Shown: piece after piece, positions 9,974-14,490 of the stretch
Position numbering within the stretch: the first letter of the stretch is position 1
How the letters are laid out: every line of letters begins with the position of its first letter
Assembly: GCA_045604085.1 (NCBI GenBank)
Contig: JAZUNK010000023.1
Span: 1 to 62,925 of the forward strand
Direction: 5' to 3'
Length of the DNA stretch: 62,925 bases
Source: Candidatus Nanosyncoccus sp.
GTDB taxonomy: Bacteria; Patescibacteriota; Saccharimonadia; Saccharimonadales; Saccharimonadaceae
Program-made: the position numbers and the translations under genes
Notes under the pieces: model-generated
Databases searched by the model: none
What the model was told of the DNA's origin: nothing
Seen by the model: the letters and a program-made list of their open reading frames with translations, nothing else

Positions 9974-10681
9974 ATGTTAGAATTAAAAAATGTTTCATTT
10001 GAAGTTAAAGAAGAGGGACGATATAGCCAGATTTTAAAAGATATTAGTTTAATGATTCCCGAAGGTACTTTTTTTGTGATAACTGGACCGAACGGAAGCG
10101 GAAAATCCACGCTCGCAAAAATCATTATGGGGATTTTGAAACCTACGAGTGGGAAAATATTCTTTAATGGCGAAGAAATAACTAGTACATCAATTATGCA
10201 GAGGGCAAAACTTGGGATATCTTTTTCTTTTCAGCAACCGGTGAAGATAAAAGGCATTTCTGTATATGAATTAATTGAAATAGCGGCAGAAAATAATTTG
10301 AGTCCTGAAGAAGTAAAAAAATGTATTGAAAATGTCGGGCTCAATCCGGATGATTATCTTAGTCGCGAGATAGATAATAGTCTATCTGGCGGCGAATTAA
10401 AGAGAATTGAAATTGCTTCTGTTCTAGCAAGAAAGAGTAAACTGACTATTTTTGATGAGCCAGAAGCAGGAATCGACCTCTGGAGTTTTGATGATTTAAT
10501 CAAAATTTTTAAGAAAATGCAAAGGGATAACCGGACAACTGTCGTTATTTCGCATCAAGAACGAATTTTGAACGTCGCAGATCAAATTATTGTTTTGGAA
10601 AATGGAACGATAAAAGACATTGGAGCTAAAGACAAAGTTCTACCGCGTGTTTTAAAGGGGGCCATTGATGGAATTAAATGA
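9974..10681 (+). CDS. sufC: SufC/SmsC-like ABC ATPase
   Basis: GPNGSGKST, SFQQP, LSGGELKRIE, DEPEAGID; adjacent to SufBD gene. Confidence 0.85.
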   Translation: MLELKNVSFEVKEEGRYSQILKDISLMIPEGTFFVITGPNGSGKSTLAKIIMGILKPTSGKIFFNGEEITSTSIMQRAKLGISFSFQQPVKIKGISVYELIEIAAENNLSPEEVKKCIENVGLNPDDYLSREIDNSLSGGELKRIEIASVLARKSKLTIFDEPEAGIDLWSFDDLIKIFKKMQRDNRTTVVISHQERILNVADQIIVLENGTIKDIGAKDKVLPRVLKGAIDGIK

Positions 10682-11591
10682 TTACGAAAAACAGATATTT
10701 TGTGAAGTGGCTGGAGACTTTAAAATCCCAGAAGGAGCTTATAATTTTCGAGTAAACGGAAAATCGATTGGTAGAAAATCAACAGACAATATAGACATAA
10801 GACCAAAAAGAAAGAATAGTGGACTCGAAATTTATATTAAAGCTGGAACAAAAAATGAGCAAGTGCATATTCCGGTTGCTATCAGCGTAGCTGGATTAAA
10901 AGAAGTGGTTTATAACGATTTTTACGTTGGCGAAGGAGCGGAAATAACAATTGTTGCTGGTTGCGGAATTTATAATTGTGGCGAACTAGATTCAAGACAT
11001 AATGGTGTACACCGATTTTTTATTGAGGAAGGTGCAAAAATAAGATATATTGAAAAACATTATGGTTTCGGGGCTGGACAAGGCGGAAAAATTCTAAATC
11101 CAACTACTGAAGTTTATTTGAAAAATGGAAGCGAAGCTTTTTTAGAAATGGAACAAATTAAAGGCGTAGACTCGACAGTCAGAAAAACAATTGCGAAATT
11201 AGATGACGGCACAAAGTTGATTGTTAAAGAACGGCTGATGACTCATGGTCGACAGGACGCGAAAAGTGATTATTATGTTGAATTGAACGGGGTCGATTCT
11301 GTTGTTGATATAGCATCGCGCTCCATTGCGCAAGATTATTCAGCACAAGAATTCTGTTCGAAAATTATTGGGAACAATAAATGTCGAGGACATTCCGAGT
11401 GTGATGCGATAATAATGGATAATGCGAAGGTCTTAGCAACCCCGTCGCTCGATGCAAGGAATATTGAGGCAGAATTAATTCATGAAGCAGCAATTGGAAA
11501 AATTGCCGGTGAGCAAATTATAAAATTGATGACTCTAGGCTTAAGCCGACGAGAAGCAGAGTCACAGATTATAAATGGATTTTTAAAATAA
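10668..11591 (+). CDS. SufBD/SmsB Fe-S scaffold protein
   Basis: Beta-helix repeats, GHSECDAII, IHEAAIGKIA, C-terminal IINGFLK. Confidence 0.88.
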   Translation: MELNDYEKQIFCEVAGDFKIPEGAYNFRVNGKSIGRKSTDNIDIRPKRKNSGLEIYIKAGTKNEQVHIPVAISVAGLKEVVYNDFYVGEGAEITIVAGCGIYNCGELDSRHNGVHRFFIEEGAKIRYIEKHYGFGAGQGGKILNPTTEVYLKNGSEAFLEMEQIKGVDSTVRKTIAKLDDGTKLIVKERLMTHGRQDAKSDYYVELNGVDSVVDIASRSIAQDYSAQEFCSKIIGNNKCRGHSECDAIIMDNAKVLATPSLDARNIEAELIHEAAIGKIAGEQIIKLMTLGLSRREAESQIINGFLK

Positions 11592-11611: not shown

Positions 11612-11660
11612 ATACTACATTTAGTGGTGTATTATAGTTCTAAGACACTAAATGTAGGGT
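11612..11660 (+). promoter_or_regulatory. Tandem NrdR boxes upstream of nrdD
   Basis: ATACTACATTTAGTGG (11612-11627) and ACACTAAATGTAGGGT (11645-11660) resemble acaCwAtATaTwGtg; 33 bp offset. Confidence 0.75.
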
Positions 11661-11742: not shown

Positions 11743-13938
11743 ATGTTCAAAAGAATCGTAAAACGGGATGGAAAAATTGTCAAATTTGATCCCGAAAAAA
11801 TTACTGAAGCAATCGCCAAAGCAGGATTAGCTACTGAAGAATTTAAACATGATAGAGCAAAGGCATTGTCTGATAAAGTCATAAAGAGAGCCGAAGAAAA
11901 AATTACGGCCAGGACTCCTAATGTTGAACAAATTCAGGATATTGTCGAAGAAATATTGATGGAATCAAGTTTTAAGCGAACAGCGCGAGAATATATACAA
12001 TATCGACAAGAAAGATCTAGAAGACGCGAAGCGAAATCTGATCTAATGATGATTTATAGAACGATTTCACACGCTGATGCGTCAGAGGATTCGGACGTGA
12101 AGCGTTCGAACGCTAACGTTGATGGCGATTCCGCAATGGGAAAGATGCTGCAGTTTGGTGCGGAGGGCTCAAAAGTTTTTGCGAAATCCCTACTCCTTCG
12201 TCCGGATATTGCGGCCGCACATGATAATGGTGATATCCATATTCATGATCTTGATTTCTATGCAACTGGAACTTTAACTTGTTGCCAGTCCGATCCTTTT
12301 GTTCTATTTGAAAATGGCGGCTTTAATACTGGGCATGGTCATCTTAGAACGCCAAATTCAATTGGCTCATATGGAGCGCTTGCGGCAATCCTATTACAAG
12401 CAAATCAAAACGAACAACATGGCGGACAATCTATTCCTAACTTTGATTATGCAATGGCACCCGGAGTCAATAAATCTTTTAGAAAAGCTTTAAAACGCAA
12501 TTTGGCTAAGTACAATAAATTCACTGGCAAAAAAGTCGATCTAGAAATTAAAGACGATTATGAATATGGCGACGATAAAAAACTTGAAAAAGCAAAATGG
12601 CCAAAGGAAGTCATCGAAGCGTCAAATGAAGATGTTGAGAGAGAAACTTTTCAAGCTATGGAAGGGTTCATCCACAATTTAAATACTATGCATTCTCGCG
12701 CTGGAGCGCAAGTACCATTCACGTCAATTAATTTTGGCACCGACACAACGCCAGCCGGTCGTCTCGTTTCTAAATATTTGTTAGAGGCGACTGAAAATGG
12801 TTTAGGGAAAGGTGAAACTCCAATTTTCCCGATTTCAATTTTCAAGGTTAAATCTGGTGTGAACTATGAGCCGGACGATCCAAATTATGATTTATTCAAA
12901 AAATCAATGGAAGTCTCTGCGAAAAGATTATTCCCAAATTTCTGCTTTATTGATGCGCCATACAATTTAAAATATTATAAAAAGGGCGATTATCGAACAG
13001 AGATTGCGACAATGGGGTGCCGCACTAGAGTTTTTGCCTCAGTTTTTCCAGAATCAGATGGAATTGTAACTGGGCGTGGTAATTTATCTTTTACGACAAT
13101 AAACTTAGTGCGTCTTGGCATAAAGCATGGGATTTGTTTAGGCGAAAGAAAAGAAGCTGACTGGGATGGTTTTTATAAAGAACTTGATGAGAAATTAGAA
13201 TTAGTAAAAGATGAACTTTTGGAACGTTTCGAATTCCAAGCGAATCAACACGTTCGCAATTTTCCGTTCTTAATGGGTCAAGGAAACTGGTTTGGGTCTG
13301 AAAAATTGGGACCGAACGACACCTTGAGGGATGTGATAAAACACGGGACTTTATCTATCGGATTTATTGGTCTAGCAGAAACTTTAGTTGCAATGACCGG
13401 TAAGCATCATGGTGAAGATGAAGACGCAAGAGAGCTCGGATTGGACATTATTACGCACATGCGAGAAAAATGTGATGAATATTGTAAAAAATATAAACTT
13501 AATTTCTCATTACTTGCAACTCCGGCAGAAGGGATTGCTGGTAGATTTACAAAAATTGACAAAAAGGAATTTGGTATTATACCAGGAGTAACTGATCGTG
13601 AATTCTATACGAATTCATTTCATGTACCAGTTTATTATCCTATCTCGGCGTTTGAGAAGATTGAAATAGAGGCGCCCTACCACAATCTTTGTAATGCTGG
13701 TCATATTACATATATCGAACTCGATGGCGATCCTTCACAAAATATTGCCGCGTTTGAGTCGGTGATTCGAAAAATGCATGATGAAGGAATAGGATACGGC
13801 TCTGTAAATCATCCAGTAGACAGAGACCCGGTTTGTGGATTTTCTGGCGTAATTACTGGGGATAGATGCCCGCATTGCGGAAGACTTGAGGGCGATGTTC
13901 CGTTTGAAAAAGTTTGTGCCTGTGCGAAGGGTGAATAA
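11743..13938 (+). CDS. nrdD: Class III anaerobic ribonucleoside-triphosphate reductase with ATP cone; C-terminal glycyl-radical motif absent
   Basis: ATP cone IVKRDG, IHIHDLD, TCC, MGCRT, ATPAEG, YTNSFH, DPVCG..CPHCG; ends VCACAKGE with no RxxGY. Confidence 0.93.
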   Translation: MFKRIVKRDGKIVKFDPEKITEAIAKAGLATEEFKHDRAKALSDKVIKRAEEKITARTPNVEQIQDIVEEILMESSFKRTAREYIQYRQERSRRREAKSDLMMIYRTISHADASEDSDVKRSNANVDGDSAMGKMLQFGAEGSKVFAKSLLLRPDIAAAHDNGDIHIHDLDFYATGTLTCCQSDPFVLFENGGFNTGHGHLRTPNSIGSYGALAAILLQANQNEQHGGQSIPNFDYAMAPGVNKSFRKALKRNLAKYNKFTGKKVDLEIKDDYEYGDDKKLEKAKWPKEVIEASNEDVERETFQAMEGFIHNLNTMHSRAGAQVPFTSINFGTDTTPAGRLVSKYLLEATENGLGKGETPIFPISIFKVKSGVNYEPDDPNYDLFKKSMEVSAKRLFPNFCFIDAPYNLKYYKKGDYRTEIATMGCRTRVFASVFPESDGIVTGRGNLSFTTINLVRLGIKHGICLGERKEADWDGFYKELDEKLELVKDELLERFEFQANQHVRNFPFLMGQGNWFGSEKLGPNDTLRDVIKHGTLSIGFIGLAETLVAMTGKHHGEDEDARELGLDIITHMREKCDEYCKKYKLNFSLLATPAEGIAGRFTKIDKKEFGIIPGVTDREFYTNSFHVPVYYPISAFEKIEIEAPYHNLCNAGHITYIELDGDPSQNIAAFESVIRKMHDEGIGYGSVNHPVDRDPVCGFSGVITGDRCPHCGRLEGDVPFEKVCACAKGE

Positions 13939-13941
13939 ACG

Positions 13942-14490
13942 ATGGATTGGCATAAGATTTCTTTAGAAAAAATTGCCAGACAACTCGAAACGCCGGATGG
14001 GTTTATCCGAGTTTCGGGTCCACTCGAACGCGATAATATTGTGAACGGCGATGGTCTTAGAGCTGTTCTTTGGACGCAAGGTTGCCCAAATGGCTGCTTG
14101 GGATGTCAGAATCCTGAGACTTGGGACTATAAAGCTGGGATATTAATTTCTATCGATGAGATTATGGAACAGCTATCCCATTTTAAAGGTCAGACTGGAA
14201 TAACTTTTTGTGGTGGTGAACCTTTTGTACAACCTAAGGCCTGCCGCGAGATAGCAGAAAGGGTTAGAAAGGAATTCGGTTGGGATGTTTGGAGTTTTTC
14301 CGGATTTACTTATGAAATTATAAAGGAATTTGGTGGCGAACCTTGGGATTTTTTAAAAACGTTAGATGCACTAATTGATGGACCGTTTATATTAAAACAA
14401 AGGGATCTAAGTTTAAGGTATCGTGGCTCCAAGAATCAAAGACTATTACGATTAGAAATTGGGACTGGAAAAATTACGAGTATCGAATAA
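13942..14490 (+). CDS. nrdG: Class III RNR activating radical SAM enzyme
   Basis: VNGDGLR, QGCPNGCLGCQNPETW, GGEP, RGSKNQR. Confidence 0.93.
   Translation: MDWHKISLEKIARQLETPDGFIRVSGPLERDNIVNGDGLRAVLWTQGCPNGCLGCQNPETWDYKAGILISIDEIMEQLSHFKGQTGITFCGGEPFVQPKACREIAERVRKEFGWDVWSFSGFTYEIIKEFGGEPWDFLKTLDALIDGPFILKQRDLSLRYRGSKNQRLLRLEIGTGKITSIE

Follow-up and report, generated by a model that had tools for sequence, protein, structure and literature searches.

The question raised by this locus is where a class III ribonucleotide reductase (RNR) would keep its radical when its catalytic chain lacks the glycyl-radical loop. The window, that is, the whole stretch of 62,925 nucleotides that was analysed, corresponds to contig C23 in the genome assembly (730 kb, 96% complete) of Candidatus Nanosyncoccus sp. 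It encodes, on the forward strand, nrdD (11743..13938), a 731-aa class III RNR catalytic body without this loop. NrdD is the only DNA-building-block reductase found in the genome, and no class I or class II RNR subunits were found there. Comparative sequence analysis and structure prediction point to a second gene, located far from nrdD, and they make it likely, with a probability of about 0.88, that NrdD and the 144-aa product of that gene form an obligate two-piece class III RNR.

The truncated NrdD and its activase

The catalytic body of NrdD retains the ATP cone, the TCC and MGCR motifs and the metal site, as had been noticed from the sequence before, and all of these lie on the forward strand. 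The ATP-cone domain covers residues 4-92 (11752..12018; PF03477, E 3e-21). It is followed by the NxN flap N123-A-N125 (12109..12117), which was aligned to P. copri NrdD and is invariant in the 64 NrdDs compared. The TCC motif (12277..12285) contains C180, whose counterpart in the alignment with P. copri NrdD is the second catalytic Cys of that enzyme, and the invariant MGCR finger loop (M424-G-C426-R, 13012..13023) carries the thiyl-radical Cys426. The barrel with C426 and C180, by which a class III NrdD is recognised, is present, both cysteines being invariant in the 64 sequences, and the TIGR02487 (NrdD) score is above its cut-off. Residues D695, C698, C709 and C712 (13825..13878), again invariant in the 64 NrdDs, make up a putative Zn-ribbon-type site that is kept on the large chain. 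The first ligand position of this site is Asp (D695-x-x-C698...C709-x-x-C712), which is also the case in full-length relatives and in the clostridial outgroups. Moreover, N447 is aligned with the Asn marking formate-type enzymes in P. copri NrdD; according to the accessible text of PMC11226230, an Asn at the third-Cys position is the mark of formate-type NrdDs.

The protein breaks off just past this site. The Pfam NRDD match (PF13597, E 1e-180) spans profile positions 2-529 of 562 and ends after the Zn ribbon. The open reading frame terminates in ...DRDPVCGFSGVITGDRCPHCGRLEGDVPFEKVCACAKGE-stop, where the truncated tail FEKVCACAKGE-stop (13903..13938, forward strand) replaces FERLRRITGY...VKH. 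The RxxGY motif, which a one-chain NrdD has in the same polypeptide, is missing from NrdD, and the loop is found on a separate gene. The earlier note had seen no RxxGY in the forward frames and no loop-bearing ORF nearby. This observation extends to every frame on both strands of 13796-14100, from which RxxGY is absent, and to a six-frame scan of the genome, which found no RxxGY-type loop near nrdD. Similar ends occur among same-genus relatives: in 11 out of 24, the chain breaks off no more than about 2-20 residues from this position, and the tails vary. Two further observations concern other genomes. The nrdD matches at G112:C71:5071-6846 and G151:C5:21057-22949 have one in-frame TGA each, which may reflect an error, a pseudogene or recoding. 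G347 (L181), from the same family, has a different full-length NrdD lineage with an RVVGF-type loop, which is consistent with independent acquisition.

The activase gene nrdG (13942..14490, forward strand) starts 3 bp past the nrdD stop and encodes a 182-aa radical-SAM protein with an intact CxxxCxxC motif. Its TIGR02491 score of 128.2 bits, against a cut-off of 126.1, identifies it as the cognate activase expected of a class III RNR. Thus, the description of a chain ending without a glycyl-radical motif immediately before an intact nrdG, given in the earlier note, is borne out by the reading frame, the Pfam match and the TIGR02491 score. Two radical-SAM proteins were found in the genome, and NrdG is the only one of the activase type; the other is a 464-aa SPASM peptide-maturase-like protein (G000:C41:8975-9433, L257). 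Directly upstream of nrdDG lie genes for a SufC-like ABC ATPase and a SufB/D-core protein (window 9974-11591), and these Suf-like genes might provide NrdG with its Fe-S cluster. Among members of the split clade, NrdG (window 13942-14000; L003-L012) frequently starts with about 20 additional residues that include a recurring W-x-K-I motif; the full-length genomes compared showed no such extension. It could help to recognise a separate partner.

The separately encoded glycyl loop

The six-frame scan of the genome located one NrdD-type Gly loop within a real gene, which lies on contig C6. This small gene (G000:C6:6077-6508, reverse strand, outside the window) encodes protein P0001 of 144 aa with the loop RITGY, and it is flanked by a near-consensus promoter and a terminator-like hairpin. 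The search for a small loop-bearing ORF, which the earlier note had recommended, was therefore successful. Its proposal of a split enzyme with a distant radical-carrier peptide is strongly supported, although the carrier exceeds the size of a peptide and has its own NrdR-boxed promoter.

Residues 85-117 of the small protein read FERLRRITGY...VKH and are near-identical to the tail of full-length relatives. Residues 84-116 match positions 532-562 of the NRDD profile (its last 31 positions), which is exactly the part absent from NrdD, and they can be aligned to the Gly loop and the tail in PDB 8P23. Residues 85-97 are invariant in all 17 of the 17 small proteins compared, as is His49, and the F-E junction residues are contained in both NrdD and the small protein. 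In two other loci, L264 (G143) and L277 (G050), the small proteins have 124 and 119 aa, the last helix having been lost and the loop kept, which suggests that the final helix is dispensable.

Both genes are preceded by putative operators of NrdR. Upstream of nrdD, two NrdR-box-like palindromes (11612..11627 and 11645..11660, forward strand) are separated by a 17-bp spacer, and the pair scores 28.4 bits, the second-best value in the genome. The best pair, at 36.7 bits, lies upstream of the small gene, and the next independent pair reaches 13.1 bits in 2.9 million position-spacing tests. The weight matrix was built from 23 boxes upstream of relatives' nrdD only, giving a 16-bp palindromic consensus, and these training boxes were collected with a seed pattern that we take to represent the NrdR box. 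A box pair with a 16-17 bp spacer occurs around the -35 element in 17 of 17 small genes. The sequences thereby present the architecture of an apparent NrdR regulon, in which paired 16-bp palindromes with about 15-17 bp between them overlie the promoter, and the spacing at the small gene is within the range that binds NrdR well (accessible text of PMC12051234). The genome contains an NrdR-like gene (C8:11509-11913) that matches TIGR00244 only, with E about 1e-32 and 112 bits, below the cut-off of 124.65. Additionally, a lone strong NrdR-box-like palindrome (20.8 bits) is located at G000:C8:40874, without a partner at 30-33 bp. It is likely, judging from the paired boxes, that NrdR co-represses nrdD and the small gene. 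The view of the earlier note that the boxes and the activase look intact agrees with these scores.

In the predicted structure of the small protein, the head (residues 1-80) is confident, with pLDDT mostly 70-91, and the loop region is of low confidence when modelled alone. When the head model (residues 1-87) was compared with 48,161 chains, the top seven matches were all ATP-cone proteins, the best with Z 9.0 and an rmsd of 2.5 Å over 78 residues; the first match outside this group had Z 5.4. As modelled, the head of the small protein has an ATP-cone-like fold. There was no PF03477 match on the head at E up to 1, the hhalign probability for an ATP cone was 4.5%, and Foldseek with the small protein gave no match at E up to 0.001 (best E 0.049). 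The ESM Atlas search with the small protein returned this protein's own clusters only, and the PHROGs search returned NrdD only. The KRDG motif is absent from the head, which has neither the sequence profile nor the nucleotide motif of an ATP cone, and nucleotide binding or sensing by the head is consequently doubtful.

The predicted complex of the small protein with NrdD residues 100-731 scored 0.79, compared with 0.00 for the best of three controls. This mark is reached by 116 of 157 solved complexes and by 2 of 215 mismatched pairs. The runs agree in at least 91% of contacts, with a partner pLDDT of at least 80. The predicted interface takes in NrdD 425-427, within the MGCR finger loop, as well as residues 80-97 of the partner, and NrdD 724-725 and 727-730 are also within it. 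In the head, His49 and Cys52 are predicted to contact NrdD 712-714, making the Zn-ribbon-type site the predicted docking surface for the head. The loop part of the score may reflect likeness to the solved one-chain NrdD; for the contacts of the head with NrdD 712-714, we know of no solved template.

Distribution, origin and alternative explanations

Among 151 genomes of the genus, 72 have a truncated NrdD, 73 have a full-length one and 6 are unclassified; the truncated state was read from the sequence in 33 of the 72 and from the end of the Pfam match in the others. The small gene is present in 69 of the 72 genomes with truncated NrdD versus 15 of the 73 with the full-length form. The three exceptions are due to assembly gaps at the locus, since two of them also lack mutM and the contig of the third ends inside the 5' part of mutM. 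The small gene adjoins mutM in all 21 of the split-genome loci fetched versus none of 15 in genomes with both forms, where its neighbours differ widely. In several genomes, including G011, nrdD and the small gene are on one contig, about 30-40 kb apart, which means that their separation is real. A relaxed search of two full-length-only genomes (98-99% complete) found the NrdD tail alone. Within the 15 genomes with both forms, the loop of the small protein is 82-100% identical to the tail of its own NrdD; in a test for gene conversion, the DNA identity of the small gene was 0.77 to the genome's own nrdD tail versus 0.73 to the others.

The history of the split was examined with a tree of 66 NrdD cores, from which the tail had been removed, obtained by a quick search and rooted on two clostridial proteins. 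G112 (internal TGA), G258, G347 (different NrdD lineage) and fragments of G005, G020 and G149 were left out. All 31 truncated NrdDs in the tree form one clade (SH-aLRT 99) nested among full-length proteins, and the genomes with both forms are dispersed, with 8 changes, over the full-length lineages. Among the small proteins, those from split genomes likewise form one clade (support 99), sister to those from both-form genomes. Because the split has a single origin, the co-occurrence represents one event followed by long retention, not 72 independent tests, and for this reason a Fisher test on the 2x2 table was set aside. In comparisons with nine split relatives, nrdD has pN 0.04-0.08 and pS 0.80-0.88, and the small gene has pN 0.07-0.20 and pS 0.74-0.96, synonymous sites being saturated in both. 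Judging from these values, nrdD and the small gene are under purifying selection. Outside the genus, NrdD matches were found in 6 of 251 genomes sampled from other genera of the order. The NrdD of G3 Saccharibacteria was reported to cluster with Clostridia (PMC7427843), and the accessible text of that paper makes no mention of a split NrdD.

In the proposed two-piece enzyme, NrdG would install the radical at Gly93 in the small protein; the loop of this protein would then enter the NrdD barrel beside Cys426, like the covalent tail in P. copri NrdD. The ATP-cone-derived head (residues 1-83) would clamp onto the Zn ribbon of NrdD, replacing the lost covalent link. Historically, the small gene may first have been an optional spare copy beside a full-length NrdD, as in 15 genomes today. 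The spare gene would often have been lost or moved, until one lineage lost the nrdD tail and the spare became essential. The small gene is missing from 58 of the 73 full-length genomes, so that any spare-part role in them must be dispensable. The two-piece RNR was probably derived from a GrcA-like spare part.

Several other explanations have to be considered beside an obligate two-piece enzyme. The small protein might be a regulator or decoy of NrdD or NrdG, with the radical coming from another source; the ATP-cone-like head is a regulatory fold, and similar phage mini-proteins often have no nrdD match in the fetched flank. This is very improbable, however, as searches of the genome turned up no second Gly loop, no part of the small protein varies less than this loop, and the gene is kept in nearly every truncated genome (69 of 72). 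It might also be supposed that nrdD is decaying or has been repurposed in an epibiont that takes deoxynucleotides from its host. Most sampled genera elsewhere in the order yielded no NrdD match, with matches in 6 of 251 genomes, indicating that relatives manage without it, and G112, from the truncated clade, has an in-frame TGA in nrdD. Such decay or repurposing is very improbable: between species, pN is much lower than pS, none of the catalytic motifs varies among 64 sequences, nrdG is intact, as are the operators, and the short form persists in 72 species-level genomes. The presence of the short form in 72 of the 151 genomes of the genus also answers the concern, raised in the earlier note, that the truncation is peculiar to one strain and marks a pseudogene.

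A new radical relay, or a redox shuttle resembling that of classes I and II, through the C-terminal Cys-Ala-Cys was the other reading offered at the outset. At least one Cys is present in 26 of 32 truncated tails, CxC in 14, and NrdD 724-725 and 727-730 are within the predicted interface. Yet 6 of the 32 tails lack any Cys past the Zn ribbon, another 12 have other Cys patterns, two end four residues past the Phe (FERLG, FERLS), and a stray Cys follows VKH in 17 of 34 full-length tails. With Asn447 at the position where a third Cys is missing from formate-type NrdDs, moreover, no disulfide shuttle is expected. A relay of this kind is scarcely credible, and Cys-Ala-Cys, which is not conserved among truncated tails, is best read from the alignments as a remnant of a variable tail. 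The two products could otherwise be joined at the RNA or protein level (trans-splicing), in which case the working enzyme would be conventional; phage nrdD genes are indeed split by introns and inteins (accessible text of PMC3653736). There is only a slim chance of this, given that Pfam scans found no intein domain on NrdD or the small protein, that the F-E junction residues are duplicated in both pieces, that a folded 83-residue head precedes the loop, and that nrdG, 3 bp past the stop, leaves no room for an intron structure. As for an assembly or sequencing error, a contig from an independent run extends over 13665-13917, as far as FEKVC, and differs in one letter, far upstream, and none of the contigs of four runs crosses the stop codon (13936-13938). 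The likelihood of such an error is nevertheless negligible: no frame contains RxxGY, so that no frameshift, which the earlier note had feared, restores the motif, and the same truncation is present in 71 other genomes.

Known systems, phage relatives and implications

The obligate two-piece enzyme favoured here can be compared with three groups of known systems. The one-chain, formate-type NrdD with NrdG (P. copri NrdD, PDB 8P23; NCBIfam PRK07111) has the same ATP cone, NxN flap, barrel and both catalytic cysteines, along with Asn in place of the third Cys, the Zn ribbon and an adjacent nrdG. In contrast to the P. copri type, the Gly loop and its following helix are here on a second, unlinked gene, and the break lies inside the glycyl-radical domain, past the Zn ribbon.

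The E. coli protein GrcA/YfiD and the phage T4 protein Y06I are, like the protein described here, small free proteins that combine an N-terminal region with a copy of the partner's Gly loop (accessible text of PMC8683613), and phage-borne relatives exist in both cases. GrcA/YfiD and Y06I rescue oxygen-cleaved pyruvate formate-lyase (PFL) in trans, and spare parts for other glycyl-radical enzymes are presented as a possibility (PMC8683613 and PMC13450708, in their accessible parts). As far as the available text of the 2026 review (PMC13450708) goes, formate lyases are the sole class of glycyl-radical enzymes with identified spare parts. Unlike GrcA/YfiD, the small protein has an NrdD-type loop and an RNR as partner; PF01228, the PFL-type Gly-radical domain by which GrcA/YfiD is defined, has no match on it or in the genome, and no PFL/GrcA domain was found in the 96%-complete genome. 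Its head is predicted to be folded and ATP-cone-like, whereas the N-terminal half of YfiD is disordered. Furthermore, the part is likely to be obligatory here because this nrdD never makes the loop. By analogy, the two-piece system is one that would act like GrcA with cleaved PFL, being neither a member of the GrcA family nor a one-chain NrdD.

RNR catalytic chains encoded in two genes are also represented by the class II NrdJa/NrdJb of Pseudomonas aeruginosa and by NrdA of phage Aeh1 (accessible text of PMC5704485 and PMC3653736). In these, the two pieces lie side by side, and what has been split off is a reductant-relay Zn domain or a half-barrel, not the radical-storing residue. The accessible parts of PMC5704485, PMC3653736 and PMC4009431 thus describe split RNRs of class II as well as phage genes broken by mobile elements. 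The ATP-cone domain of NrdR, NrdD and NrdA/B, finally, has a fold in common with the predicted small-protein head, in which the Pfam match and the KRDG motif are missing. The literature searched, consisting mostly of open papers without supplements, contains no account of a class III RNR whose Gly loop is encoded separately, and a split class III enzyme is absent from the accessible text of PMC9669993, PMC12288474, PMC4493059 and PMC4390871.

The small protein belongs to a wider family. A profile search gave 2154 representatives at E up to 0.001. Among the best 150 of these, 149 are no longer than 250 aa, and 107 begin with Met and have the loop but no CxxC, although some may be contig-edge fragments. 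In 66 viral loci, the loop is on a short ORF in 46, on a long NrdD in 10 and could not be assigned in 10. The whole head-plus-loop protein is encoded at five viral loci (four distinct proteins), and at four loci (L197, L225, L229 and L240) a tail-less NrdD lies near a loop ORF of 47-92 aa. On viral contigs L191-L195, full-length homologues of the small protein are encoded just downstream of genes resembling terminases, and the 3-kb flanks contain no nrdD match. On another viral contig (L226:2998-3950), the reading frame of a head-plus-loop mini-gene breaks off within the Gly motif, ending in RITGK, and an HNH-like ORF comes next, an arrangement that suggests, from the sequence, a self-splicing intron in the radical motif. 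Several representatives of 91-95 aa from the profile search end at the same profile position as this mini-gene.

A broader model can be offered tentatively, at somewhat less than even odds, in which the oxygen-fragile radical site has become a replaceable cartridge. NrdG would charge a free 16-kDa protein that docks on the Zn ribbon by means of a repurposed ATP cone. Once cleaved by oxygen, this protein could be exchanged for a fresh copy, and the 82-kDa barrel would not have to be made anew. The genus would then keep a series from one chain, through a chain with a spare, to an obligate two-piece enzyme, and phages would carry the cartridge to feed or rescue the host enzyme.

The question can be put to a direct test with three small recombinant proteins. 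As the loop is missing from the large chain, activity of any kind has to arise in trans. The parting of the Gly loop from the Zn ribbon likewise allows a clean test of what NrdG recognises. The proposed enzyme would be an example of an optional repair part that turned into an essential subunit. In addition, it would imply that neither truncated nrdD genes nor the hundreds of database entries for mini 'NrdD' proteins need be pseudogenes or fragments.
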